IMG/VR virus record: IMGVR_UViG_2529293240_000021
Span: 1 to 13,448 of that record
DNA: 13,448 bases
From: a virus
Lineage: Duplodnaviria; Heunggongvirae; Uroviricota; Caudoviricetes
Reading direction: 5' to 3' (one strand)
Numbering within the stretch: position 1 is the first letter of the stretch; each line of letters begins with the position of its first letter. Under the pieces are notes generated by a model. It worked only from the letters and a program-made list of their open reading frames with translations, made no database searches and was not told the origin of the DNA. Of this stretch, positions 1 to 13,448 are shown piece after piece. Position numbers and translations under genes: made by a program.

Positions 1-1545
1 TCATTGAGCTTCTCGATCACTTCGCGCAACCAGTCCTCCGGCTCCACTTCGTTCTGTTTGCAGGTGACCAGCAGACTGTAGATGATCGCCGCACTTTCTC
101 CTCCCTTGTCTGAGCCGAAAAAGAGATAAGTTTTTTCTTCCAACCGCCACCGATCGTAACGCGTTTTCACCGATGTTGTTGTCTATTTCCACCCAGCCGT
201 CACGACAGAACTCGTTCAGCGCATTCCAGTGATTCAGGATATAGTCGAACGCCTTCGCCATCTCCGCATGTTTCGACAGCGTTTTCCTCTGCAACTGTAT
301 CCAGTCGTACAACGACTGCATCAACTGGACGCTTCTGGCTTTTCTGACTGCAAGCCGTTCCTCTGCCGGACTGCCACGTATCTCCGCTTCTATGTCGTAT
401 AACTCTGCTATCCGTCTGAGCGCTTCCTGAGTCATTTCTGTCGGACGGCGCACATCCTCGTCATGGATTTTTCGGCGGGCGTGGGCCAGGCACCCGGCTT
501 CCTTCACCCGGCCCGTTTCGTACAGTACGTTATAACCTGCATAGGCATCAGCCTGCAGTACGCCCTGATACTTTGCCAGGTGGAGCTGCGGATGTTCTCC
601 TTTGCGATCTGCCGAATACGCGAACCAGACGGCTGCCGGCAGGGATGAACCCGCATTACGATCATCCCTGACGTATACCCACAGACGACCCGTTTTCGTC
701 TTTCCGTTCCCCGGGGCCAGTACTTTCACCGGAGTGTCATCTGCGTGCACCTTTCCTGCCTCCAGAACATAGTCATTCAGCGCTATATACAGAGGACGGA
801 GTTTGTCTGCCATTTCTGATACCCAGCGCACCATGGTATTACGGCTCAGCTCCACGCCCTGTCGCGCGTATATTTCTGACTGGCGATATAAAGGGATATG
901 TTCCATATATTTGCTGACCAGGATCCGTGCAAGTAACCCTGCACTGGCATAACCGCGTTCGATCGGTTTAGGAGGAAGTGGTGCCTGAACGATGACATCA
1001 CACCGGCTACAGGCCAGTTTGGGACGTATGGTTTCGATAACTTTAAAGGCGGTATTAATGATATCCAGTTGCTCTGAGATTGTTTCCCCCATTTCTTTCA
1101 GAACACCTCCACAGGCCGGGCAACTGGTTTCAGCAGGCAGAAGGCGATGTGTCTCCCGGGGAAGTTCTGCCGGCAGCGGTTTTCGTGAAGATTTTCGTCC
1201 CGGGAATTCAGGCTTACTGGCGATCGGGTTTTCTGACGGGGGACTGGTGTCAGGTGAATCTGTGACTGACGATGCATCTTCCAGAAGATTTCTGGCTGTG
1301 TTCAGCCGGTTTTCCAGTTCCGACAGTCGTTTTTCTGCCTGTCGGATCTGATTTTCAAGCTTATGACGCTTTTTCTCTGAACTCTGGCCGAACAACATAC
1401 GACGCAACCTGTCGAGTTGCGCTTTCAGCCGTTCAATTTCCTGCTCATAGCCCGCGACCTGACAGGCATACTGTCGAAGCCGACTCTGTTGCTTACGCAA
1501 CATGGCTTTAAGCAGCTCAATATCATCGGGGAGTTCATTGTTCAT
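1..1545 (-). CDS. tnpC: IS66-family transposase TnpC; 3' end appears frameshifted (possible pseudogene)
   Basis: 514-aa ORF with IS66 transposase motifs (CxxC zinc-finger-like region, ...[36 protein letters not shown]). After GRKN the annotated frame becomes Arg-rich low complexity, while another frame encodes a protein-like tail ([43 protein letters not shown]) that runs off the window edge. Confidence 0.8.
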
Positions 1546-1564
1546 TCCCTTGTTTTATCACGGG

Positions 1565-1912
1565 TTATATCCGGATGCCAGGCCGTTCTGTCCGTTTGGG
1601 ATGTTGCCACGCGATCCCCTCCAGTAGCATGGATAACTGAGCTGGCGTCAGGTGCACTTTCCCTTCCCGGGTCACCGGCCAGACGAAGCGGCCCCGTTCC
1701 AGGCGTTTGGCGAACAGGCATAACCCGTCACGATCGGCCCACAGTATTTTCACCATTTTGCCACTGCGGCCCCGGAAGACGAAGATATGCCCGGAGAACG
1801 GGTCATCTTTCAGCGTGTTCTGCACCTTCGAAGCCAGGCCATTGAAGCCACAACGCATATCTGTGATGCCAGCGATGATCCAGATTTTGGTACCGGTCGG
1901 CAGCGTTATCAT
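1565..1912 (-). CDS. tnpB: IS66-family accessory protein TnpB (Orf2)
   Basis: 115-aa ORF (MITLPTGTKIWIIAGITDMRCGFNGLA...) directly downstream of tnpA with a 4-nt ATGA overlap; size and position match IS66 Orf2. Confidence 0.85.
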   Translation of the reverse strand: MITLPTGTKIWIIAGITDMRCGFNGLASKVQNTLKDDPFSGHIFVFRGRSGKMVKILWADRDGLCLFAKRLERGRFVWPVTREGKVHLTPAQLSMLLEGIAWQHPKRTERPGIRI

Positions 1913-2583
1913 CGGATACCCCCTTTCATTTCGCGGATTAGCGCCCGTAACAGTTCCGGAGTGAGAGGGTCAAACAGTTTTACCACACCTGATTTAAGAT
2001 GCAGCTCGCACCGTGGGACGTTTCCGGGAGCCCCCTCAGGGCGCTCATCATGCTTGTTACGCCAGAAGGGATTTGTAACTGGTCTGGTCGGCTCCGGCGT
2101 ATCAGTCAGAGCCACCGGGACAGGCATGCATTCCTGTATGTCATCATCGCTCAGTAAGCCGTCCTCGTACTGGCTTTTCCATTTAAACAGCAGGTTATTA
2201 TTGATATCGTGTTCTCTGGCGATCCGGGCAACAACAGCCCCAGGCTGTAACGCCTGCTTAGCCAGACGGACCTTAAATTCACGGCTATAGCTGGTTCGCC
2301 GTTCTTTTCGCCATGAGCCTTCTCTGATTTGAGGCTCTGTTAATTCCTTCTTTCTGTTGGCATAAAGGATGGCGTCAAGTTGAGCGAATGAAACTGAATC
2401 GGGCAATGGCCATGCGATACCGGATGCAAGAAATCGCTGAAAAAGCGTATGTATTGTGGAATGACTGAGACCCAGACGCTGAGCGATGGCCCGGATGGTC
2501 AGTTTATCTTCAAATCTTAAACGCAGGGCATCAGGCAAATAAGAACGGAAGCAGGGAATATCTTTTGTTGTCTGGGAATTCAT
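1909..2583 (-). CDS. tnpA: IS66-family accessory protein TnpA (Orf1), long form with extra N-terminal HTH region
   Basis: 224-aa ORF, first gene inside the IS end. C-terminal half (REFKVRLAKQALQPGAVVARIAREHDINNNLLFKWK) resembles the IS66 Orf1 HTH region; N-terminal half has a second HTH-like segment (TIRAIAQRLGLSHSTIHTLFQRF). Confidence 0.8.
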   Translation of the reverse strand: MNSQTTKDIPCFRSYLPDALRLRFEDKLTIRAIAQRLGLSHSTIHTLFQRFLASGIAWPLPDSVSFAQLDAILYANRKKELTEPQIREGSWRKERRTSYSREFKVRLAKQALQPGAVVARIAREHDINNNLLFKWKSQYEDGLLSDDDIQECMPVPVALTDTPEPTRPVTNPFWRNKHDERPEGAPGNVPRCELHLKSGVVKLFDPLTPELLRALIREMKGGIR

Positions 2584-2640
2584 CGTTCGTGTCCATCAAT
2601 ATAGATGGGCGCGATTGTTGCCAGACAGGACAATTTTCAC

Positions 2641-2665
2641 AAGACGTCGCTGATGGGGCGCTTAC
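2641..2665 (-). repeat. terminal inverted repeat of the IS66-family element (approximate extent)
   Basis: Minus-strand sequence GTAAGCGCCCCATCAGCGACGTCTT ending at 2665, about 80 bp upstream of the tnpA start. Inner boundary of the repeat is not determined. Confidence 0.65.
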
Positions 2666-2726
2666 TGTTGTTCTGAGGTGAGCATATCACCTCTGTTCAG
2701 GTGGCCAAATTCAGTGTGCCACTTCA
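2666..2726 (+). mobile_element. 61-bp terminal fragment of an IS3-family element (IS911-like right end), truncated by the IS66-family insertion
   Basis: Plus strand 2691-2726 reads CTCTGTTCAGGTGGCCAAATTCAGTGTGCCACTTCA, whose complement starts TGAAGTGGCACACTGAATTTGGCCACC. This is a TGA...TCA-type IS3-family terminal repeat that I recall as the IS911 right end. It abuts the IS66 terminus at 2665/2666. Confidence 0.5.
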
Positions 2727-2972
2727 AAAGCTGAAAATGATGCTCTTCGGCGCAAGCTTGATAATGGTGGTCGGGTGCTCGTCAAAGGAAAATGCCCTGT
2801 GCCATCCTCAGCCGAAACCTCCAGCGCCTCCGGCATGGGCAATGATGCCACCGTCGAACTCTCTCCAGTTGCTGGACGAAACGTTCTCGGTATCCGGGAC
2901 GGAATCATCAGCGACCAGACAGCATTGAGAATGCTTCAGGAGTACATCAGGATCCAATGCCTTGGGGGGTAG
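2727..2972 (+). pseudogene. Rz: Rz-like i-spanin, 3' fragment only (5' part removed at the IS boundary)
   Basis: Frame open from the IS end: KAENDALRRKLDNGGRVLVKGKCPVPSSAETSSASGMGNDA...QCLGG*. The KAENDALR and S-A-E-T-S-S-A-S-G-x-x-N-D-A segments resemble the C-terminal half of lambda Rz (AKAENDALRDD...REATTASGVDNAA...). No start codon or N-terminal TM segment is present. Confidence 0.6.
2737..2928 (+). CDS. Rz1: Rz1-like o-spanin lipoprotein, embedded in the +1 frame of Rz
   Basis: 63-aa ORF MMLFGASLIMVVGCSSKENALCHPQPKPPAPPAWAMMPP...: signal peptide with lipobox (VVGC) followed by a proline-rich stretch, closely resembling lambda Rz1 (MLKLKMMLCVMMLPLVVVGCTSK...KPPPPPAWIMQPP). Entirely inside the Rz frame. 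Confidence 0.55.
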   Translation: MMLFGASLIMVVGCSSKENALCHPQPKPPAPPAWAMMPPSNSLQLLDETFSVSGTESSATRQH

Positions 2973-3060
2973 CGGTAATTTTACTCATTATCCTTCAAAT
3001 CAGATTCTGTTGTCAGAGGAATGGGGGAAGCTGGATTCGCAAGAGCTTTTTATGGGCAGT

Positions 3061-3570
3061 TTAGCTAAAAAAAGGCAACACGAAGCTAAAACTACCAACA
3101 TAAAGTGCTGACCAGCTAGCAGCTGAAATCAGACTCACTGTATACACTTTCACTGGATGAAGTTGCAACATTCCTGCCACCAAAGGAGCAATGTAACGCA
3201 GCACGGCGATAAAGCGCGAAGTGAAAAGTATTGACACAGAGTTATTTTGCAACTGAAGGCGAACCCGTTCTATTGTATTGGAACGGCTCGATATTATACA
3301 TGCAAGTTGAGGGATATGCCCAATTATTATACCAAGATGGTAATTAACGATAGTACCGCACCATGCGCCACTCATGACCGTGATTCCAGCTTCCCATGGT
3401 GAAAGAGTCGTCTTGCTGACTGTAATTACAGTGGCCATCATAATTGATGCTGGTGGCAATATCGCCGAAATGAGTAAAGTGGATTTTGTGAACGCTATTA
3501 TAAAAAGAAGCCCCCATAGGCGATATGGATGAAGTACAAAATAGTTCATCAAAGCATTTATCCACTCCAT
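3061..3570 (-). CDS. YqaA/DedA-family inner-membrane protein (probable prophage moron)
   Basis: 169-aa hydrophobic ORF. Segments align by eye to E. coli YqaA (FLSATLLPGNSEVVLVAML vs LLISAILPPASIMMATVIT; HPWVLVLTATMGNSLGGLTNVILG vs SPWEAGITVMSGAWCGTIVNYHLG; SWMPVVGDLLCLLAGWMRIS vs SRFIAVLRYIAPLVAGMLQLH). RBS AAGGAAA lies 7 nt upstream of the ATG at 3570. Oriented opposite to the flanking phage genes. Confidence 0.65.
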   Translation of the reverse strand: MEWINALMNYFVLHPYRLWGLLFIIAFTKSTLLISAILPPASIMMATVITVSKTTLSPWEAGITVMSGAWCGTIVNYHLGIIIGHIPQLACIISSRSNTIERVRLQLQNNSVSILFTSRFIAVLRYIAPLVAGMLQLHPVKVYTVSLISAASWSALYVGSFSFVLPFFS

Positions 3571-3767
3571 CAATGTCTTTCCTTCTGTGAATTTTTCTTT
3601 GCTATTTAACCGTGATACGACTTAATTTAGGCTTAAACACCTTACATTTACAAGGTACTCCTGTGGGGGGCCCTGCCACGGAGCGTCGCAGGAGTGAGTG
3701 ATGAGGAAGAATTAAAGCAACCTATTGTGACAGGCAGCGATAACAGTAAATCACAGGAAGCATAATC

Positions 3768-4532
3768 ATGGCAAAACCGGACTGGGAGGCCATCGAATCG
3801 GCATACCGGGCCGGAGTCCTTAGCCTCCGTGATATAGGCGAGAAATACGGCGTTACAGAAGGGGCTATCAGGAAGAGGGCCAAAAAGCTTGGTTGGGCAC
3901 GCAGTGGCGGTACGCAGGTTTGCAAAAATGGTACGCAAAAAAGGAAAGTGCGTACCAGCAGAAAGCCTGCCATTACTGGCCTTACACAAAAAAGTACGCA
4001 ACTAAAAACAGAATCTACACCGGATACGAAACCGATACGCGGAATGCGTACCGATCCCCCGACTAACCCATTCCAACCCGGTAACCAGCAGGCATTAAAA
4101 CACGGTGGTTATGCCCGTCGCCTTCTGCTCAAAGATGAGGTGATAGAGGACGCTAAAGCGTTGACGCTCGAGGACGAATTATTTCGCCTTCGTGCTAACA
4201 ACCTTGTCGCTGCAGAGAATATTGGTCGGTGGTTGGTGTCGCTGGAAGATGCTAATGGGGACCAGGAAAGGAAGATGCTGATTGAAAATATCAGCGCCGC
4301 CGAGAAAGCAATGATGCGCAATACAGTTCGTATTGAGTCCATCGTTGGCACGCTTGCGACGGTAGGAAAAATATTTGCTGATACAGCCTACCGCAAGGCC
4401 GCCACTGATAAGGTGTCTCTGGAGGCTGATCGTCTTCGCCGTGATGCAGGTATTGATGATGGCAATGGAGAGCGTGACCTCAATGACTTCTACTCTGACA
4501 TCCAAACCGACGCTGAATCCGGCTTTACGTAG
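3768..4532 (+). CDS. terS: phage terminase small subunit (N-terminal HTH DNA-binding domain)
   Basis: 254-aa ORF with AGGAAG RBS 6 nt upstream. N-terminus MAKPDWEAIESAYRAGVLSLRDIGEKYGVTEGAIRKRAKKLGW is a typical small-terminase HTH. It sits immediately upstream of, and overlaps, the large-terminase ORF. Confidence 0.7.
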   Translation: MAKPDWEAIESAYRAGVLSLRDIGEKYGVTEGAIRKRAKKLGWARSGGTQVCKNGTQKRKVRTSRKPAITGLTQKSTQLKTESTPDTKPIRGMRTDPPTNPFQPGNQQALKHGGYARRLLLKDEVIEDAKALTLEDELFRLRANNLVAAENIGRWLVSLEDANGDQERKMLIENISAAEKAMMRNTVRIESIVGTLATVGKIFADTAYRKAATDKVSLEADRLRRDAGIDDGNGERDLNDFYSDIQTDAESGFT

Positions 4533-5150
4533 TTTCTGGACTATGCGGGCACGTAACAAAGTGCTTTATGGTGGTCGGTCATCGTCAAAATCATGGGATG
4601 CCGCTGGCATTGCCATATTTCTGTCGAATAAATACACCCTGCGTTTTTGTTGTGCCCGTCAGATCCAGAATAAAATCGAAGAGTCGGTGTATACCCTGCT
4701 CAAAATTCAGATAGACAGGTTTGGTCTGCGGCACCGTTTCCGTATTCTGAACAACAAAATCATTAACCGGGTTACTGGCTCGGAATTTGTTTTTTATGGA
4801 TTATGGCGCAACATCGAAGAAATTAAGTCACTGGAGGGGATCGATGTGTTGTGGCTGGAAGAAGCCCACGCACTGACGGAATACCAGTGGAAAATTCTGG
4901 AGCCAACGATCCGTAAAGAGGGTTCGGAATGCTGGTTCATATTCAACCCCGGACTTGTTACTGATTTCGTCTGGCGCAACTTCGTTGTTGATCCGCCCGA
5001 AGGCACTCTCATCCGCAAAATTAACTATGACGAAAATCCGTTTCTGTCTGACACCATGCTTAAGGTTATCGACGCGGCGCGACGCCGTGATCCGGATGGT
5101 TTTAAACATGTGTATGAGGGCGTTCCGGAGTCTGATGATGATGCGGCAAT
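4483..5150 (+). pseudogene. terL: terminase large subunit, N-terminal ATPase fragment, interrupted by IS2
   Basis: ORF with a Walker-A-like motif (VLYGGRSSSKSW) and Walker-B-like DVLWLEEAH. The reading frame runs into the IS2 left end and stops 6 codons later. Start chosen at ATG 4483 (GGAG 12 nt upstream); 4543 is an alternative. Confidence 0.85.
5146..5150. repeat. 5-bp target-site duplication (GCAAT), left copy, flanking IS2
   Basis: GCAAT immediately precedes the IS2 left terminus TAGACTGGCC at 5151; an identical copy follows the right terminus. Confidence 0.9.
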
Positions 5151-5241
5151 TAGACTGGCCCCCTGAATCTCCAGACAACCAGTATCACTTATTTAAGTGA
5201 TAGTCTTAATACTAGTTTTTAGACTAGTCATTGGAGAACAG

Positions 5242-5607
5242 ATGATTGATGTCTTAGGGCCGGAGAAACGCAGACGGCGTACCACACAGGAAAAGATCGC
5301 AATTGTTCAGCAGAGCTTTGAACCGGGGATGACGGTCTCCCTCGTTGCCCGGCAACATGGTGTAGCAGCCAGCCAGTTATTTCTCTGGCGTAAGCAATAC
5401 CAGGAAGGAAGTCTTACTGCTGTGGCCGCCGGAGAACAGGTTGTTCCTGCCTCTGAACTTGCTGCCGCCATGAAGCAGATTAAAGAACTCCAGCGCCTGC
5501 TCGGCAAGAAAACGATGGAAAATGAACTCCTCAAAGAAGCCGTTGAATATGGACGGGCAAAAAAGTGGATAGCGCACGCGCCCTTATTGCCCGGGGATGG
5601 GGAGTAA
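5242..5607 (+). CDS. insC: IS2 OrfA (InsC), HTH protein
   Basis: 121-aa [59 protein letters not shown]..., matching IS2 InsC; GGAG RBS upstream. Confidence 0.9.
5559..5565 (+). promoter_or_regulatory. -1 programmed ribosomal frameshift slippery heptamer (A AAA AAG) of IS2
   Basis: AAAAAAG lies in X XXY YYZ register with the insC frame, and insD is open in the -1 frame from this point (frame arithmetic: insC at position mod 3 = 1, insD at mod 3 = 0). Confidence 0.8.
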
Positions 5608-6470
5608 GCTTAGTCAGCCGTTGTCTCCGGGTGTCGCGTGCGCAGTTGCACGTCATTCTCAGACGAACCGATGACTGGATGGATGGCCGCCGCAGTCGTC
5701 ACACTGATGATACGGATGTGCTTCTCCGTATACACCATGTTATCGGAGAGCTGCCCACGTATGGTTATCGTCGGGTATGGGCGCTGCTTCGCAGACAGGC
5801 AGAACTTGATGGTATGCCTGCGATCAATGCCAAACGTGTTTACCGGATCATGCGCCAGAATGCGCTGTTGCTTGAGCGAAAACCTGCTGTACCGCCATCG
5901 AAACGGGCACATACAGGCAGAGTAGCCGTGAAAGAAAGCAATCAGCGATGGTGCTCTGACGGGTTCGAGTTCTGCTGTGATAACGGAGAGAGACTGCGTG
6001 TCACGTTCGCGCTGGACTGCTGTGATCGTGAGGCACTGCACTGGGCGGTGACTACCGGCGGCTTCAACAGTGAAACAGTACAGGACGTCATGCTGGGAGC
6101 GGTGGAACGCCGCTTCGGCAACGATCTTCCGTCGTCTCCAGTGGAGTGGCTGACGGATAATGGTTCATGCTACCGGGCTAATGAAACACGCCAGTTCGCC
6201 CGGATGTTGGGACTTGAACCGAAGAACACGGCGGTGCGGAGTCCGGAGAGTAACGGAATAGCAGAGAGCTTCGTGAAAACGATAAAGCGTGACTACATCA
6301 GTATCATGCCCAAACCAGACGGGTTAACGGCAGCAAAGAACCTTGCAGAGGCGTTCGAGCATTATAACGAATGGCATCCGCATAGTGCGCTGGGTTATCG
6401 CTCGCCACGGGAATATCTGCGGCAGCGGGCTTGTAATGGGTTAAGTGATAACAGATGTCTGGAAATATAG
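5565..6470 (+). CDS. insD: IS2 OrfB (InsD), DDE transposase catalytic domain; expressed as InsCD fusion by -1 frameshifting
   Basis: 301-aa [41 protein letters not shown]... matching IS2 InsD; begins at the slip site in the -1 frame relative to insC. Confidence 0.9.
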
Positions 6471-6481
6471 GGGCAAATCCA

Positions 6482-6486
6482 GCAAT
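6482..6486. repeat. 5-bp target-site duplication (GCAAT), right copy, flanking IS2
   Basis: GCAAT immediately follows the IS2 right terminus ...CAAATCCA at 6481. Confidence 0.9.
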
Positions 6487-7222
6487 CATCAAACTGTCTT
6501 GGATAGAAGCCGCAGTGGATGCGCACAAAACGTTAAATTTCGAACCCAGTGGAAGAAAGCGTATTGGCTTTGACGTGGCTGACAGTGGTACAGATAAGTG
6601 CGCTAACGTTTACCGTCACGGATCCGTTGTTTTCTGGGCCGACGAATGGAAGGCCAAAGAAGATGAATTACTGAAGAGCTGCCAGCGTACTTATCAGGCG
6701 GCGCTGGAGCGTGAAGCAGATATTGTTTACGACTCTATCGGTGTTGGTGCGTCTGCCGGTGCTAAATTCTCTGAAATTAACGCTGACCGGAAGAGCGAGA
6801 ACGCATACGCGCGACGTGTGAATTACCAGAGGTTTAACGCCGGTGCTGGTGTGCATGAGCCAGATGACGAGTACAACGGCATCCCCAACAAAGACTTTTT
6901 CGCAAATCTTAAGGCTCAGGCATGGTGGCTGGTGGCTGACCGTTTCAGAAATACGTTTAACGCCATTAACAACGGAGAACAGTATCCTGTGGATGAGCTG
7001 ATCAGCATAGATTCTCGTTGTCCGTTGCTTGAAAAGCTGAAACTGGAACTGACAACACCTCATCGTGATTTCGACCGTAACGGACGTGTGATGGTCGAAA
7101 GTAAAAAAGACCTCGCAAAACGCGAGATACCGTCACCAAACGTTGCTGATGCATTCATTATGGCCTTCGCGCCAATCGATACATCGCTGGATATCTGGGA
7201 ACAGCTGGGGAGACAGGCCTGA
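6482..7222 (+). pseudogene. terL: terminase large subunit, C-terminal (nuclease) fragment, separated from its 5' part by IS2
   Basis: Open frame continues directly from the IS2 right end to a stop at 7220-7222. Joining to 4483-5150 after removing IS2 and one GCAAT copy is in frame. The stop overlaps the portal start (TGATG). Confidence 0.85.
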
Positions 7223-8688
7223 TGGCACGAAACAAACAAGCCCTGCGGCGAACTGTGCAGGCCACAGCTGATGGTTATGAGAATTTTATTGCCCGCGTAG
7301 GGATGCAGACACCTAACCAGCACTCAGCATCCACCTACCGGGCTAATTTCACCAGTCGTAACCGCATGCTGGTGGAATGGTCCTATCGTTCATCCTGGAT
7401 CATCGGCGAAGCAGTCGATGCTATCCCGGATGATATGACCCGCAAAGGCATTCGCATCACTTCGGAAATTGATGCAAAAGATCGTGGCATTCTCGAATCA
7501 CAACTGGATGAGTTGCAAATCTGGGATGCGCTGAATGACGTGCTGAAATGGTCGCGCCTCTACGGCGGCGCGGTGGGTTTCATCATGATTGAGGGGCAGG
7601 CACCAATGACCCCGCTGCGACCCGAAACCATCGGTAAGGGCAAGTTTAAGGGGATTCTCCCGCTCGACCGCTGGATGGTCGACCCGGCACTGACCCGCCG
7701 CATTAAAGATATGGGGCCGGACCTGGGTAAACCTGAGTTTTACGATGTGGTGACCACAGCAACGGGAATTCCTGCCTGGCGCATTCATCACAGTCGCCTG
7801 ATTCGCTTTGATGGCGTCACGTTGCCATTTCAGCAGAAGATGACCGAGAACGAATGGGGAATGTCGGTTGTAGAGCGTATCTGGGATCGTCTTACCGCGT
7901 TCGACAGCGCTACTGTCGGCGCGGCGCAGCTGGTCTACAAGGCGCATTTGCGTACCTACAGCGTGGAGAAGCTACGCGAGCTTATCGCACTTGGTGGTCC
8001 TGCGTATGAAGCGTTGCTGAAGAATATCGACCTGATTCGACAGTTCCAGAGTAATGAAGGCATGACGCTCATGGACTCGCGGGATAAGTTTGAAACCCAT
8101 CAGTACAGCTTCAGTGGTCTGGATGACATCCTTTCGCAGTTTGCAGAACAGATTAGTGGCGCTGTTGGTATCCCACTGGTGCGGTTGTTCGGACAGTCCC
8201 CGAAAGGATTTTCTACCGGTGATGCAGACCTTGCCAACTATTACGATCGCATCAGTTCGTTGCAGGAGAGGCGTTTACGTCTTCCGGTGCGGCGGATACT
8301 GGACATCATGCATCGTTCGGAACTTGGCAAGCCGCTGCCGGACGATTTCACGTTTGAGTTTAACCCGCTCTGGCAAATGTCTGATGTCGATCGCTCAACG
8401 GTGGCGTTAAACACCACCAACGCAATCAGTACGGCGCTGGGTGATGGTCTGATGACACTGAAAGCCGCTATGACTGATTTGCGAGAAAATTCTGACGTAA
8501 CCGGCATCGGGGCATCCATTACCGACGAGGACATCGAGAATGCCGAAGATGAAGCGCCGCCCGGCATCGGCGAACCTGATGACGAACCGCAGGAGCCGTC
8601 AGGCGGAAATCCGGTATCGAACCAGCCTACGCAGGATAGCGAGGGCGGTCGGAGACATCGTAAATGGTCGCTACGATGGTTCAAATGA
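7222..8688 (+). CDS. phage portal protein
   Basis: 488-aa ORF immediately after the large terminase with translational coupling (TGATG), followed by a Mu F-like gene, as in the SPP1-type order terL-portal-gp7. Acidic C-terminal tail. Family assignment is by position, size and overall resemblance, not by search. Confidence 0.7.
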   Translation: MARNKQALRRTVQATADGYENFIARVGMQTPNQHSASTYRANFTSRNRMLVEWSYRSSWIIGEAVDAIPDDMTRKGIRITSEIDAKDRGILESQLDELQIWDALNDVLKWSRLYGGAVGFIMIEGQAPMTPLRPETIGKGKFKGILPLDRWMVDPALTRRIKDMGPDLGKPEFYDVVTTATGIPAWRIHHSRLIRFDGVTLPFQQKMTENEWGMSVVERIWDRLTAFDSATVGAAQLVYKAHLRTYSVEKLRELIALGGPAYEALLKNIDLIRQFQSNEGMTLMDSRDKFETHQYSFSGLDDILSQFAEQISGAVGIPLVRLFGQSPKGFSTGDADLANYYDRISSLQERRLRLPVRRILDIMHRSELGKPLPDDFTFEFNPLWQMSDVDRSTVALNTTNAISTALGDGLMTLKAAMTDLRENSDVTGIGASITDEDIENAEDEAPPGIGEPDDEPQEPSGGNPVSNQPTQDSEGGRRHRKWSLRWFK

Positions 8689-9322
8689 CAGTATCACGGA
8701 AATTATTGCGGCGCTGGAGCGTTACAGTGAAATCATCACCCCCTGGGCGACAAAGGTCGCGGAAAACTTTACTGCGGACCTAACCCGGCAGAACGAGAAA
8801 GTTTGGCGGCAACACAGCAAGAACATCAGTCGCGAGCTCCGCAATCTTGTGGAAAGCGCTCCTGTGGGCCAGGTGATGCAATCCATCATCGCCGAACAGG
8901 TCAAGTACATCAAATCTCTGCCTCTCGAGGCCGCAGACAGGGTGTACGACATCCAGAACAAAGCGATAGAGGCTGTTGTCACCGGTGGTCGGGCGGAGCA
9001 GTTTGCTAAAGAGATTGCATCTACCGGCGATGTTGCTAAGTCTAGGGCCGATCTGATTGCCCGAACGGAACTGGGAAGAGCAACGGGCGCGCTGGATATG
9101 GCCCGAGCGATAGCTATTGGCTCGGATGGTTATATTTGGCGTACAGCCGATGATGGCGATGTCCGAGATTCCCACGATCACATGAAAGGTAAATTCGTCC
9201 GCTGGGATTCACCTCCAACTTTGGACGGCATGACCGGCCACGCGGGCGAGCTGCCAAACTGCCGCTGCTATAAAGAGATCGTGTTTGTTCGCGTTCCATT
9301 CGCAATGAAAAGGGCAGCATAA
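8579..9322 (+). CDS. phage head morphogenesis protein, Mu F / SPP1 gp7 family
   Basis: C-terminal region GYIWRTADDGDVRDSHDHMKGKFVRWD...LPNCRCY is the characteristic Mu F-like domain signature. Start is uncertain (ATG 8579 chosen, overlapping the portal 3' end by about 110 bp). Confidence 0.75.
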   Translation: MTNRRSRQAEIRYRTSLRRIARAVGDIVNGRYDGSNDSITEIIAALERYSEIITPWATKVAENFTADLTRQNEKVWRQHSKNISRELRNLVESAPVGQVMQSIIAEQVKYIKSLPLEAADRVYDIQNKAIEAVVTGGRAEQFAKEIASTGDVAKSRADLIARTELGRATGALDMARAIAIGSDGYIWRTADDGDVRDSHDHMKGKFVRWDSPPTLDGMTGHAGELPNCRCYKEIVFVRVPFAMKRAA

Positions 9323-9325
9323 CCC

Positions 9326-10546
9326 ATGAAATACTTTTTTGAGACCAGGCTCGGGGAAACCCGATACCGCCTGGCTGACGGCTCGTTGCTGTGCAAAGAC
9401 GTGCCGATAGGACGAACAGGTAAGCAGCTCTATGGTGCTGATGACCTGCCAAAACTGAAACCCGATAAGTTCGGTGAAATAGTCGTCACGCGTTCTCCTG
9501 AGCAGGTATTCCATCCGGCCACGCTTGCCTCATTCGAAGGGATGAGCATCACGATCCTGCATCCTGAAGATGAAAACGGGAATGTGCGGCTGGTAAATCC
9601 CGAGAACTGGAAAGAGCTTGCTGTCGGGCACCTCCAGAATGTCCGGCGCGGGACGGGTGAGCAGTCTGATTTGATGCTGGCTGACCTTATCGTCAAAGAC
9701 GAAAGCGCCATTCAGCTTATCGAAGATGGCCTGCGCGAAGTGTCGTGCGGCTATGACGCGGAGTACGAGCAGACCGAGCCAGGTAAAGCCGAGCAGGTCG
9801 ATATTACCGGAAACCATGTGGCTCTTGTCCCTAAAGGCAGAGCCGGAAATCGTTGTGCAATTGGAGACAGAGACACAATGGCAAATCAAAAGAAAAACTG
9901 GTGGAACCGCATGCGTGCGGCCATCAAGACAGGAGATGCCGACACCATGAACGAACTGGTGGAGTCGGCTCCCGCATCGGTTACAGGAGATGAGGGGGAT
10001 TTGCCGCAGGGCGTTAATCTCAACATCAACCTGTCCCCGCAGCAACCACTACCGGACAAAGCACCAGAGATGGGCGGAGATCCAACCGGCGACAGTGATG
10101 ATGACCTCAAAACATTACTGAAAGCCCTGCTGGCTAAGCTGGAAAGAAATGCCACGGGCGATAACGATAATAAGCCTGACGATAATCCGACCGGTGACGG
10201 CGAGGACGATGAAGAGGAAACCACGATTACTGGTGACTCAGCCTGGCGTGCCGAAGTTATCGTTCCGGGTATCGATCTGAGCCGTAAGATGAAACCGACC
10301 GCGTTCAAACGCGAGGTTCTGGCTTCTGCTGACAAAACGCTGGTTCGCCAGATAGTCGGTGATGCGGATATCCGCAAATTACCGAAACAATCGGTCGACA
10401 TGGCGTTTAATGCCGTGTCTGAGGTTGCCAAAGGGCGAAACACCCGCGCCACCACCGGCGATGCACAGCGCCTAAACATGGGCATGACCAGTATCGCTTC
10501 CCTGAACAAACAAAACGCTGAATTCTGGGCAAACCGTAAAGGGTAA
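9326..10546 (+). CDS. putative capsid scaffolding / prohead maturation protein
   Basis: 406-aa ORF between the Mu F-like gene and the capsid genes. Globular N-terminal domain followed by a strongly acidic, low-complexity central segment with reiterated TGD motifs, then a basic C-terminus. Assignment is by position and composition only. Confidence 0.45.
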   Translation: MKYFFETRLGETRYRLADGSLLCKDVPIGRTGKQLYGADDLPKLKPDKFGEIVVTRSPEQVFHPATLASFEGMSITILHPEDENGNVRLVNPENWKELAVGHLQNVRRGTGEQSDLMLADLIVKDESAIQLIEDGLREVSCGYDAEYEQTEPGKAEQVDITGNHVALVPKGRAGNRCAIGDRDTMANQKKNWWNRMRAAIKTGDADTMNELVESAPASVTGDEGDLPQGVNLNINLSPQQPLPDKAPEMGGDPTGDSDDDLKTLLKALLAKLERNATGDNDNKPDDNPTGDGEDDEEETTITGDSAWRAEVIVPGIDLSRKMKPTAFKREVLASADKTLVRQIVGDADIRKLPKQSVDMAFNAVSEVAKGRNTRATTGDAQRLNMGMTSIASLNKQNAEFWANRKG

Positions 10547-10549
10547 AAA

Positions 10550-11056
10550 ATGAATAATGTATTTCTGTACCGGATGCCTGTTGGCATTGCCGGGGCTGTC
10601 TCTCGCCCGCAGGACTTAACCGTCGAACCGGTGGTCCTTAAATCCGATAACGCCTTCGCTGCCTATGGCCTGGCTGGTAAATACGATGATGACGGTTTTT
10701 TCGTGCCGCTGGCAGATGGTGATACCGCAGACAAGGTGAAGGGGATCTACGTGCGCCCTTATCCGACCACGTCGCAGCCGGACATGGTTCGCCAGGTGGG
10801 AACAGGCAAGAACTTCCCGGGCGACGCCATGAAGCGTGGCTACGTGACCGTTAATCTCGGTTCTGATTTTGATGCCAGCACTATCAAAAAAGGCGATCCG
10901 GTATACGTTGTCGTCTCCACTGATGAATCCATCAAAGTGCCGCTGGGTGGATTCATGTCCACGTCAGTCAGTGGCAAAAACGTGGTGCTGACCAACGCTG
11001 AATTCACAGGTGCCGGTGATGCTGACGGCAATGCAGAAATTTCCTGGAAGATTTAA
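10550..11056 (+). CDS. putative head decoration / cement protein
   Basis: 168-aa ORF tightly packed (3-bp gap) between the putative scaffold and major capsid genes; Gly/Val/Asp-rich, beta-rich-looking composition. Assignment is by position only. Confidence 0.35.
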   Translation: MNNVFLYRMPVGIAGAVSRPQDLTVEPVVLKSDNAFAAYGLAGKYDDDGFFVPLADGDTADKVKGIYVRPYPTTSQPDMVRQVGTGKNFPGDAMKRGYVTVNLGSDFDASTIKKGDPVYVVVSTDESIKVPLGGFMSTSVSGKNVVLTNAEFTGAGDADGNAEISWKI

Positions 11057-11067
11057 GGAACAGACGA

Positions 11068-12009
11068 ATGATTACTTTTGATCAGGCAACCGTTGACAGC
11101 TCTGGTGCCTTTCTCATCGGGGAGCTGGAGCGACTCGACCAGACGCTGAACCTGCCACTGGTGGGGTACACCTGGAGCCGCGATATTCAACTGCGTGAAG
11201 ACGTCTCCATCGCAGATGACATTTCCAGCTGGACGAATACCAGCTTCGCCGCTGCGGGTACTGGCGCAAATCCGAATGGAAAAAACTGGGTAGGCAAAGA
11301 CTCAACCGCTATTGCTGGCGTGAACGTGGATATCGGCAAATCCGGTAACCCGCTGAACCTGTGGGGGATGGAACTTGGCTGGACGGTCATAGAATTGCAG
11401 GCTGCTCAGCAGGTCGGCCGCCCGATTGATACGCAGAAGTATGACGGTATGCAACTGAAATGGCAGATGGATAACGATGAACAGGTATATGTTGGCGATT
11501 CCGCATTAAACCTGAAAGGCCTTGTTACCCTGGACGGCGTGCCTGTCAACAACGCTGCCAAAACGTGGGCAACCTCAACACCGGACGAAATCCGCGCAAG
11601 CATTAACCAGGTGCTGTCTGATGCGTGGGCCGCTTCTGGTTACTCTGTGGTTCCGCGTGATTTGCTGATCCCGCCTGAGCAGTTTGCTCTGTTGTCCAGC
11701 ATCATCGTTTCATCTGCAGGTAACCAGTCCCTGTTGACGTACCTTCAGACCAACACCATCAGCTATCACCAGAACGGTGTTCCGCTGAATATCCGCGCGG
11801 TTAAATGGCTGAAAGGCCGTGGTGTGGGGAATAAGGATCGCATGGTTGCGTACACCAACGATAAAAAATACGTCCGCTACCCGCTGGTTCCGCTTCAGAG
11901 CGTGCCGGTGCAGTATCGCGGTCTGTATCAGATCGTCACTTACTACGGCAAGCTGGGTGCAGTCGAGCCAGTGTACAAAGAAACCATTTCGTACGTTGAT
12001 GGCATTTAA
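11068..12009 (+). CDS. putative major capsid protein
   Basis: 313-aa ORF with strong RBS (AAGGAA 8 nt upstream), last gene of the head block and followed by a stable hairpin. Size and position fit a major capsid protein. Confidence 0.6.
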   Translation: MITFDQATVDSSGAFLIGELERLDQTLNLPLVGYTWSRDIQLREDVSIADDISSWTNTSFAAAGTGANPNGKNWVGKDSTAIAGVNVDIGKSGNPLNLWGMELGWTVIELQAAQQVGRPIDTQKYDGMQLKWQMDNDEQVYVGDSALNLKGLVTLDGVPVNNAAKTWATSTPDEIRASINQVLSDAWAASGYSVVPRDLLIPPEQFALLSSIIVSSAGNQSLLTYLQTNTISYHQNGVPLNIRAVKWLKGRGVGNKDRMVAYTNDKKYVRYPLVPLQSVPVQYRGLYQIVTYYGKLGAVEPVYKETISYVDGI

Positions 12010-12016
12010 CAGCCAC

Positions 12017-12037
12017 ATGGCCCCCTGGCGGGGCCAT
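12017..12037 (+). other. GC-rich stem-loop (9-bp stem ATGGCCCCC / GGGGGCCAT, 3-nt loop) just downstream of the capsid gene; no U-tract
   Basis: Perfect inverted repeat read directly from the sequence, starting 8 nt after the capsid stop codon and 14 nt before the next start codon. Confidence 0.45.
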
Positions 12038-12050
12038 TAAGGATGACCCG

Positions 12051-12249
12051 ATGGCAAAAAATGATGCAGTAATACACGTACATACCCCGTTTGTGCTCAC
12101 GCTTCCCGACGGTTCTCGGCGCGAGTTTGTTAAAGGCCGTCATGTTGTGGAGGAAGACGTTGCCACGCACTGGTTCACTCGTGCGCACGCGGAAGTATCC
12201 GTTGGCAAAGCCACAGACGCGCGTAACGAGGTAAAAAATGCCAAAGAAT
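12051..12249 (+). pseudogene. small phage ORF downstream of capsid gene, 3' end replaced by IS3-family insertion
   Basis: ORF with RBS (AAGGATG) begins at 12051. The IS terminus (TGAGGTGTACTGGCAATAGCGGACAC) begins at 12250 inside codon 67, so the last 14 codons of the 81-aa ORF are IS-derived. Confidence 0.4.
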
Positions 12250-12292
12250 TGAGGTGTACTGGCAATAGCGGACACTACCATTTGTTCTTTTT

Positions 12293-13111
12293 TTAAGCAG
12301 CCATCTGATGATATTTTTCCCTGAAGGCTGCCGGGGAGATATTCCCCAGACGAGAGTGACGACGCTGACGATTGTAGAAAATCTCAATGTATTCCCGTAT
12401 TACTGAGATGGCTTCATCCCGGTTATTAAAACGATAGTGGCTCAGGCTCTCATTTTTCAGAGTTCCCCAGAAGCTTTCCATCGGAGCGTTGTCGTAACAG
12501 TTACCTTTACGCGACATTGATGTTTTCAGACCAAACTGCTCCTGTATGACCCGGTAATCGTATGCGCAGTACTGTGAACCTCGATCAGAGTGGTGGATTA
12601 GCCCGGCAGGTGGGCGCTGGCTCCTGAGCGCCATAAACAGGGCTTTACCTGTCAGCTCTTTTGTCACGCGCTCTCCCATGGCGTAGCCGACAATTTCGCA
12701 CGTATAAACATCTTTGATGCCAGCGAGGTACAACCATCCCTCCTGTGTGGCAACATACGTCAGGTCCGCCACCCAGACCTGATTTGGTGCTGTAGGAGCG
12801 AACGTCTGGTTCAGCAGATTTGGCGCAACTGGCAGATTGTGGTTCGGGTTCGTAGTCGCTCTGAACTTGCGTTTCTGCTTACAGCGTAGCCTTAGCTCCT
12901 TACGAAGACGTGCCAGTCGGTCACGACCAACGATGATGCCATTCTCTGCCAGCTCCGTCTGGAGCCGCCGGGTTCCATATGTTTCGCGAGTGCGGATATG
13001 TGCCACCTTAATCTCCAGTTTTAGCCGCTCATCACTTTGTTTTCTGTCTGAGGGTTCATGCTGTACCCAGTTGTAATAACCGCTCCTGGATACACCAAAT
13101 ACCTGACACAT
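12293..13111 (-). CDS. IS3-family transposase OrfB (DDE catalytic domain)
   Basis: 272-aa ORF with integrase-core motifs (VWVADLTY, HHSDRGSQY, CYDNAPMESF). Its frame stays open upstream to the A-run at 13191-13197. Confidence 0.85.
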   Translation of the reverse strand: MCQVFGVSRSGYYNWVQHEPSDRKQSDERLKLEIKVAHIRTRETYGTRRLQTELAENGIIVGRDRLARLRKELRLRCKQKRKFRATTNPNHNLPVAPNLLNQTFAPTAPNQVWVADLTYVATQEGWLYLAGIKDVYTCEIVGYAMGERVTKELTGKALFMALRSQRPPAGLIHHSDRGSQYCAYDYRVIQEQFGLKTSMSRKGNCYDNAPMESFWGTLKNESLSHYRFNNRDEAISVIREYIEIFYNRQRRHSRLGNISPAAFREKYHQMAA

Positions 13112-13160
13112 CGCTTCAATGGGAAATTGTTGTCGCCATTGTTCGATTAACGCGTATTTT

Positions 13161-13448
13161 TCAGCGACTCCTGTGCAAAATACGCTGTTGCTTTTTTAAT
13201 ATATCTCGCTCAAGGCGAGCTTCATTTAACGCCTTACGCAGTTGCAGAATTTCAGATTCCAGTTCAGCCACCGTGCGGGAACCAGGAGTACCGAGCCCTT
13301 TTCTGGCGGCGGTAACCCATTGTCCTAAAGTGCCTTCAGGAAGGGATAATCGGGAAGCGCCTTCACTGATCGAAGGTTGATTTTCAAGAACCGTTCTGAC
13401 AGCTTCGGCTTTGAACTCTTTAGAGTAACGTTGGGTTTTTCTGCTCAT
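13161..13448 (-). CDS. IS3-family OrfA (HTH / leucine-zipper protein)
   Basis: 95-aa ORF starting at the last base of the window (ATG at 13446-13448, minus strand): MSRKTQRYSKEFKAEAVRTVLENQ...; C-terminal tail may be altered (see findings). Confidence 0.85.
   Translation of the reverse strand: MSRKTQRYSKEFKAEAVRTVLENQPSISEGASRLSLPEGTLGQWVTAARKGLGTPGSRTVAELESEILQLRKALNEARLERDILKKQQRILHRSR
13191..13197 (-). promoter_or_regulatory. A6G slippery run at the orfA/orfB junction of the IS600-like element (frame relation atypical)
   Basis: Minus strand reads TTA AAA AAG in the orfA frame, but orfB lies in the +1 frame, not the -1 frame, relative to orfA by coordinate arithmetic. Confidence 0.55.

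Follow-up and report, generated by a model that had tools for sequence, protein, structure and literature searches.

The DNA analysed in this study (referred to as the window) comprised 13,448 nucleotides (nt), positions 1 to 13,448 of the IMG/VR virus record IMGVR_UViG_2529293240_000021 (Caudoviricetes), and carried on its minus strand a gene for a predicted DedA/VTT-domain inner-membrane protein of 169 amino acids (aa; coding sequence, 3061..3570). The open reading frame (ORF) spanned 3061..3573, and the start was set to the ATG at 3570 because the homologues all began with MEW. The product was identical to WP_011069285.1, which is labelled "DedA family protein" by RefSeq in Escherichia coli genomes. 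An initial reading of the same DNA (the original prediction) had assigned positions 3061-3767, corresponding to this coding sequence plus a 197-nt intergenic stretch reaching the gene for the small terminase subunit (terS), to a polytopic membrane protein on the opposite strand with its own ribosome-binding site and an AT-rich upstream region, inserted at the position equivalent to that of bor in phage lambda. This description was borne out: a Shine-Dalgarno-like AAGGAA (3579..3584, minus strand; read directly) was located 8 nt 5' of the ATG, the grand average of hydropathy of the protein was 0.87 with several long hydrophobic segments, and the guanine-plus-cytosine (GC) content was 42% in the coding sequence and 31% in the 80 nt upstream, versus 51-54% in the Rz remnant, terS, and the portal gene. 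The gene and its upstream region therefore had a base composition unlike that of the surrounding phage genes, as expected for a moron. The gene was divergent from terS and convergent with Rz, and matches to Pfam Rz1 and PHROG 370 placed it between a lysis remnant (Rz/Rz1) and terS. It was, as also claimed, the sole gene in the window belonging neither to the phage nor to an insertion sequence (IS).

The assignment to the DedA superfamily was confirmed by a profile search: Pfam VTT_dom (PF09335; DedA or "SNARE-associated") scored 52.4 bits over residues 41-161 (cut-off, 33.9 bits; E 9e-14). On the other hand, the proposed resemblance to YqaA was not upheld by direct comparison with all eight DedA paralogues of E. 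coli K-12, using blastp, phmmer, and a profile of the subfamily described below. YqaA did not align significantly (blastp E 4.8, 6.2 bits by phmmer, and 8.7 bits against the subfamily profile), and the YqaA branch was ruled out, with YabI, DedA, and YqjA all closer among the eight. The closest paralogue was YabI (24.6% identity, blastp E 8e-12), followed by DedA and YqjA; these three showed 23-25% identity, blastp E values of 8e-12 to 3e-8, and 58-61 bits against the subfamily profile.

Two specific motifs, K29-S30-T31 and P39-P40-A41-S42, were invariant in 20/20 members of the subfamily collected (the "KST...PPAS" subfamily), and no acidic residue was invariant anywhere in the protein across these 20 members. 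In a profile alignment to YqjA, K29 corresponded to E39, P40-A41-S42 to G50-D51-S52, R119 to R130, and R125 to R136. Since the function of YqjA requires E39, D51, R130, R136, and S52 (10.64898/2026.09.20.752871), the required acidic residues were absent: the membrane-embedded acidic pair of VTT proteins (E39/D51 in YqjA) was occupied by K29 and A41, and G50 by proline. The arginines of UptA equivalent to R119 and R125, together with a glutamate, contribute to the binding of undecaprenyl phosphate (Und-P; C55-P) (PMC11474028). When 1.84 billion representative proteins were searched with the profile, only 12 representatives were obtained at E < 1e-30, followed by scores typical of generic DedA proteins. 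Among the best 150 representatives, lysine at the E39 site was found in the subfamily only, the others having nearly all glutamate, with a few aspartate or unaligned, and carriers of the KST/PPAS signature all fell within the subfamily. The next-best matches outside the subfamily were mostly fusion proteins of ~630-740 aa with an N-terminal DedA domain. By alignment, these proteins form a small and distinct subfamily of DedA that has lysine for the core glutamate and alanine for the aspartate but keeps both essential arginines and the serine.

An AlphaFold2 model from the 20-sequence subfamily alignment was poor (predicted local distance difference test score (pLDDT) 55), whereas a 59-sequence alignment raised the pLDDT to 85 (predicted template modelling score 0.80) and gave an all-helical protein. 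Two helix-break-helix hairpins at 15-52 and 111-134 corresponded to the two re-entrant hairpins expected for the VTT core, and R119, R125, P129, and G133 aligned with R130, R136, and the P/G motif of YqjA. A fold search of the PDB with this model gave no significant match, in line with there being no solved DedA structure, and one of viral predicted structures gave only weak matches to giant-virus VTT proteins. The protein resembled YabI, DedA, and YqjA/YghB (COG0586-type) in the VTT domain, the two re-entrant hairpins, the motif R-F-x4-R-x3-P-x3-G with both arginines, and the serine after PG(D), but differed from YabI, DedA, and YqjA in its length (169 aa versus 192-254) and the lack of a C-terminal segment, ending ~45 residues earlier than YqjA-type proteins. 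The product is thus modelled as a minimal DedA/VTT-domain inner-membrane protein without the YqjA-type C-terminal extension. The dN/dS values against six relatives (57-78% identical) were 0.16-0.23; therefore, the ORF has evolved as a protein, under purifying selection.

The gene proved to be variable cargo rather than a core component of this phage type. It was found in 6 of 5426 complete E. coli genomes, and the same terS in 207 of them. When the window was aligned to E. coli SCU-308 and to Klebsiella phage ST16-OXA48phi5.2, the DNA that was extra relative to relatives lacking the DedA gene spanned approximately 2975..3710 (~735 nt); the distance from the Rz stop to the terS start was ~60 nt in DedA-less prophages and the Klebsiella phage, the flanks of which were 88% identical, and ~795 nt in the window. 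This agrees with a moron, which is additional DNA separating two genes that are neighbors in related phages and carried by only some of these. Another close relative had a different small ORF at the junction. We are highly confident in the statements on family and on cargo status. The E. coli and Shigella copies differed by 0-2 nt over 810 nt, which points to a single recent acquisition in these bacteria, followed by spread. Within E. coli, one lysis module together with the DedA gene was joined to two different packaging modules.

Homologues recurred at the same place and in the same orientation in two other phage types, as the original prediction had asked to be surveyed. A 78% identical variant was present on the opposite strand of a Citrobacter youngae prophage with a lambda-type GpA terminase and portal_2, after a holin, an endolysin, and a small spanin-like gene, and before terS. 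A 75% identical variant (locus L101) lay, again on the opposite strand, between lysozyme and DUF2514 genes and Terminase_2/Terminase_6 genes. At the nucleotide level (blastn, 82% identity to both phage types), similarity extended over 3051-3645 with the C. youngae prophage and 3051-3653 with L101; it began ~80 nt 5' of the ATG and ended 10 nt beyond the stop of the 510-nt ORF, and the flanks were unrelated. Since homology was confined to this segment, the mobile unit is the promoter region plus the ORF (3051..3653, minus strand), and three different phage backbones carry this cassette of ~0.6 kb at the junction equivalent to that of bor. The original claim of an insertion at the lysis/terS junction, in opposite orientation and with an upstream region of its own, agrees with this structure. 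No convincing direct or inverted repeats marking an insertion mechanism were found in the flanks. As with lambda bor and other morons of the lysis-cos/terS junction, the gene lay past the last lysis gene and before the packaging genes, opposed late transcription, and occurred in only some relatives; on the other hand, Bor is an outer-membrane lipoprotein, in contrast to a polytopic inner-membrane DedA protein, and no terminator was detected. The known occupants of this junction in lambdoid phages are morons for interaction with the host or with phages, a point in favor of a role directed at phages (see below).

Other small genes were also observed between the DedA cassette and terS, in E. coli RMDEC465 (L100 4281-4829, minus strand) and in the C. 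youngae prophage (L004 6311-7776), including one DUF6694 protein and reverse-strand ORFs of 110-183 aa; the lysis/terS junction thus accommodates several cargo genes. A further variant, 73% identical and located on an IMG/VR contig (L097), was considered as a phage-borne case and rejected, its upstream flank being shared with a chromosomal Citrobacter locus. The end of a Mu-like transposable prophage (MuA, MuB, ner-like, and repressor-like genes; L097 3145-7101) was located ~0.9 kb from the DedA gene of this contig, and the gene, beyond the repressor end of the element, seemed to lie in flanking host DNA. Among 50,697 deposited phage genomes, there was no nucleotide or protein match apart from a few matches of 24-30% identity in records resembling host DNA.

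The relatives were scanned using one genome per species (64 loci). Identities to the protein of the window were 72% in Kosakonia, 57-74% in Citrobacter, ~50% in Enterobacter and Lelliottia, and 36-43% in Hafnia, Morganella, and Arsenophonus. Phage markers were absent near 59 of the 64 loci, the exceptions being the E. coli/Shigella and C. youngae copies, and the relatives of the cassette are genes on the chromosomes of Citrobacter, Kosakonia, Enterobacter, and comparable Enterobacterales. A gene for an MgtE-family Mg2+ channel was adjacent in 33/64 loci, in three arrangements: divergently oriented in Enterobacter and Lelliottia, at a distance of 2.8 kb in Hafnia, and downstream in Arsenophonus. 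The gene for a Mg2+ channel of another family, corA, was adjacent in all of the eight Morganella loci, a pairing of the same kind as that with mgtE elsewhere; in Morganella morganii (L069 6963-9470), the subfamily gene was flanked by rarD on one side and on the other by corA, with which it was immediately convergent.

The upstream regions were scored for PhoP boxes, the consensus of which is (T/G)GTTTA-N5-(T/G)GTTTA in direct orientation, using a position weight matrix built from 29 DNase-footprinted PhoP boxes of Salmonella (PMC3335776 Table 1; median 15.2 bits, minimum 9.8 bits). Two PhoP boxes with 16-18 bits were found upstream of the gene in Enterobacter and Lelliottia, the proximal of which was in direct orientation, 12 nt from a -10 hexamer TTAAAT, corresponding to "architecture II" of PMC3335776. 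In Citrobacter and the two other phage copies, one PhoP box (9.4-13.3 bits) was found at the same place, with the same 12-nt spacing. The intergenic boxes between mgtE and the DedA gene (TGTTTA-AGAAC-GGTTTA and TGTTGA-GGGTT-TATTTA; L034 7708-8000 and ~26 Enterobacter/Lelliottia loci) were near-consensus; therefore, mgtE is also predicted to be activated by PhoP in Enterobacter, in agreement with a 19.6-fold rise of its transcript in a strain with mgrB deleted. In that strain, a colistin-resistant Enterobacter hormaechei ST89, RNA-seq showed that N5F16_08425 (MgtE), N5F16_08430 (DedA), and N5F16_08435 (short-chain dehydrogenase/reductase, SDR) were up 19.6-, 23.1-, and 3.1-fold, respectively, and 7.7-, 11.9-, and 2.4-fold in a ceragenin-resistant derivative; the arn operon, pagP, slyB, mgtA, and virK/ybjX were induced alongside N5F16_08430 (PMC10434160). 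The gene order MgtE-DedA-SDR was identical in the E. hormaechei locus L034 and ~20 other Enterobacter loci, and N5F16_08430 is presumed to be an orthologue by this synteny; the protein in E. hormaechei B56 was ~49% identical to that of the window and had the KST/PPAS signature. We infer that the chromosomal orthologues belong to the PhoPQ response to low Mg2+ and cationic peptides. The gene of the window differs from N5F16_08430, which is chromosomal, divergent from mgtE, and preceded by two PhoP boxes of 17-18 bits, in having one altered site.

In the window, the ~80-nt block upstream of the gene, which lies on the strand opposite the late operon, was conserved and contained a -10-like hexamer as well as a repeat of the activator type. 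The hexamer TTAAAT (3604..3609, minus strand) was conserved in the Citrobacter, Enterobacter, and Lelliottia orthologues in upstream alignments, and a generic sigma-70 scan upstream of the gene found no full promoter and no recognizable -35, which suggests an activator-dependent promoter. At the place of the PhoP box of the orthologues, the window had the direct repeat TTTAAG-CCTAA-ATTAAG (3621..3637, minus strand), 11 nt upstream of TTAAAT. Compared with the Citrobacter-type sequence TGTTTAGGCTCGATTGAG, the sequence of the window, TGTTTAAGCCTAAATTAAG, had two G-to-A changes and an insertion, which together gave this repeat. The PhoP-box score fell to 4.6 bits because of the 1-nt insertion between the half-sites; the first half-site, TGTTTA, was perfect. 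The repeat fits the PmrA/BasR box, which consists of two xTTAA(G/T) hexamers 5 bp apart (PMC3973317) and overlaps the -35 region, as a pattern match, and the arnB promoter of E. coli has a similar geometry (CTTAAG-GTTAA-GTTAAT, 10 nt, TAAAAT). The pattern TTAAK-N6-TTAAK had this one match on both strands of the whole window, with 0.07 expected, and was absent from the other 62 loci scanned. No intrinsic terminator was found for the DedA gene, the downstream region on the minus strand being unstructured.

Taken together, we tentatively favor, as a possibility somewhat short of being probable, that the protein is a translocator of an anionic lipid, probably Und-P, serving the remodelling of the envelope, and that the phage-borne copy is a lysogenic-conversion gene. 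The conserved core is purely cationic (K29, R119, and R125) and would therefore probably handle an anionic lipid head group, Und-P being the leading candidate by analogy with the Und-P flippases UptA (YngC of Bacillus subtilis) and PA4029 of Pseudomonas aeruginosa. A cationic core without a conserved acidic residue also speaks against both a bound cation and a proton-relay pair, and the protein would probably act without a proton-coupling acidic pair. It shares with these flippases the superfamily and both arginines that bind C55-P in UptA (R112 and R118), and the co-induction of the orthologues with the arn operon, a consumer of the carrier lipid, is a further likeness. In the PhoPQ response, the chromosomal orthologues would help the remodelling that consumes carrier lipid, such as the addition of 4-amino-4-deoxy-L-arabinose (L-Ara4N) to lipid A, and the prophage copy would supply extra activity to E. 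coli and Shigella, which lack a subfamily member of their own. In this lineage, the activator site resembles a PmrA/BasR box and not a PhoP box. PmrA/BasR is the regulator of arn in E. coli. The idea in the original prediction that the gene may confer tolerance to antimicrobial peptides gained indirect support from the regulation and gene neighborhood of the orthologues. DedA proteins have been connected with Und-P flipping and polymyxin resistance (PMC12893004) and with growth at low Mg2+ (PMC10470534). Published work also describes lipid translocation by DedA proteins, of Und-P by UptA and PA4029 and of phosphatidylethanolamine by PetA, and their support of L-Ara4N-dependent polymyxin resistance.

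The full scenario, in which a charge-reversed DedA subfamily of the low-Mg2+ and cationic-peptide response was captured by at least three lambdoid lineages at the lysis/terS junction, its PhoP box was rewired into a PmrA/BasR box, and Und-P recycling came to be co-expressed with arn/ept, conferring tolerance to polymyxin and host peptides, is unlikely to hold in all its parts.

Several points weigh against a role in Und-P translocation and its regulation by PmrA/BasR. The protein is not an UptA-type equivalog: scores against NCBIfam NF052604 and NF052605 were 19.9 and 16.3 bits versus cut-offs of 250 and 300, respectively, and this assignment was rejected. The glutamate of UptA that pairs with R118 and contributes to C55-P binding (E32) is a lysine here, and the change from glutamate to lysine could abolish the activity or alter the substrate. 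The functional data on the subfamily amount to one transcriptome, and N5F16_08430 was placed in the subfamily by synteny, not by its sequence. The PhoP-box score of the window was below that of the weakest footprinted site, and the match to the PmrA box was noticed after the fact and is a lead. No -35 and no terminator were found, so that expression in the lysogen is putative. Finally, the adjacency to genes for Mg2+ channels could indicate a role related to cations rather than lipids.

This last point leads to the alternative that the protein is a factor for magnesium homeostasis, which promotes or modulates Mg2+ uptake or channel function under Mg2+ limitation. It is in keeping with the location of the orthologues beside mgtE, in three arrangements over 33 loci, or beside corA, in 8 loci, and with the co-induction of one of them with mgtE in the mgrB-null E. 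hormaechei. XdfA of Xanthomonas campestris, a DedA-family protein tied to virulence, is needed for growth at low Mg2+ and for Mg uptake, additively with corA1 (PMC10470534), and the defects of Klebsiella pneumoniae yqjA yghB are rescued by Mg2+ or Ca2+ (PMC10846249). The link of XdfA with low Mg2+ parallels the mgtE/corA neighborhood and the PhoP boxes, although XdfA is from a distant organism, and its proposed role as a Mg2+ channel is unsupported by the cationic core of the subfamily: K29, R119, and R125, with no invariant acidic residue, would make a poor site for a divalent cation. Furthermore, the chromosomal copies in Citrobacter and Kosakonia were not beside genes for Mg2+ transporters. 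To our knowledge, E. coli and Shigella have no mgtE, and if so, the phage copy must act without that partner. We consider a function in Mg2+ homeostasis unlikely.

The gene may also be an inert passenger, a silent hitch-hiker in a dead Shigella/E. coli prophage with a damaged activator site, and the broken PhoP-like box and the lack of a -35 are what would be expected of it. An E. coli variant (L083) had a 1-nt deletion in the A-run of the -10, the prophage is riddled with IS elements, and the near-identical copies in E. coli and Shigella say little about selection in this lineage. The ORF was intact in spite of this, and the dN/dS values (0.16-0.23) apply to the lineage leading to it. The exact protein was indexed in 4343 sample blocks, mostly of Shigella flexneri, in prophages that were variously decayed, with neighbouring genes split or deleted; this count is a weak point and no proof of selective retention because the look-up detects intact copies alone. 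The changes in the box jointly produced a well-spaced PmrA-type repeat, unlike random damage, and we consider complete inertness to be rather improbable.

Least likely is a function directed at phages, either superinfection exclusion or defence, or membrane energisation and the timing of holin-triggered lysis: the gene adjoins the lysis cassette in three unrelated phage backbones and DedA mutants alter the membrane potential (PMC10846249), but it is on the strand opposite the late operon with a promoter region inherited from chromosomal genes, most members are chromosomal (59/64 species loci without phage markers), no homologue was found in the deposited phage genomes except in probable host contamination, a PADLOC scan for defence systems gave no match for the DedA gene (so that the phage exclusion of the original prediction gained no support), and a PHROG search of the 169-aa protein gave only a weak match to an unannotated PHROG.

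Junction morons and DedA proteins are already known. The subfamily with lysine for glutamate, the pairing with Mg2+ channel genes and PhoP boxes, the repeated capture of 0.6 kb by phages, and the altered activator site in E. coli and Shigella appear to be new; a literature search that covered the accession and DedA proteins in prophages or Shigella found nothing relevant and no earlier description of any of these features. The link of DedA proteins to Und-P recycling and polymyxin resistance is recent, and the role of the acidic and basic pairs is unsettled; a subfamily that keeps the arginines, has lysine for the glutamate, and is strongly induced on de-repression of PhoPQ may serve as a natural test of the acidic residues. 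The results also show temperate phages moving such a candidate gene for envelope homeostasis across genera, from chromosomes of the Citrobacter/Enterobacter type to E. coli and Shigella; the exact protein occurs in thousands of assemblies of S. flexneri. If expressed, the gene would be a candidate for lysogenic conversion, aiding tolerance to cationic peptides or growth at low Mg2+. The altered activator site would then be a compact case of regulatory rewiring after horizontal transfer.

The surroundings of the gene were clearly those of a defective lambdoid prophage, broken up by three IS elements; the IS load, together with the database matches, points to S. flexneri as the origin of the DNA. 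An IS66-type element with three ORFs on the minus strand (within 1-2717, the element filling 1-2583) truncated the Rz spanin gene, of which a 3' remnant (2718..2972, plus strand) was left; the truncation was deduced because homology to the Rz of intact prophages began only at 2718, beside the element. The embedded Rz1 ORF (2701-2928) matched Pfam Rz1 with E 5e-21. On the other side of the DedA gene, terS (3768..4532, plus strand; PHROG 370, E 7.5e-95) was followed 3' by the gene for a Terminase_3 large subunit, split into two pieces (4375-5166 and 6455-7222) by an IS2-like element of the IS3 family (5167-6470). Portal, MuF-like, and capsid genes came next, and an IS3-family (IS600-like) element (12293-13448) closed the structural region. 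Between the promoter block of the DedA gene and terS, a GC-rich inverted repeat (ACTCCTGTGG...CGCAGGAGT; ~3657-3695, plus strand) was present inside the inserted segment and outside the part common to the other phages. Folded as RNA, this hairpin (-26.6 kcal/mol) was not clearly more stable than shuffled sequences (z -1.9) and had no U-tract. In the DedA-less E. coli SCU-308 (L002 4245-4591), the annotated start of terS was ~290 nt downstream of the ATG that aligned with that of the window, which suggests a mis-annotated start or a frameshift.

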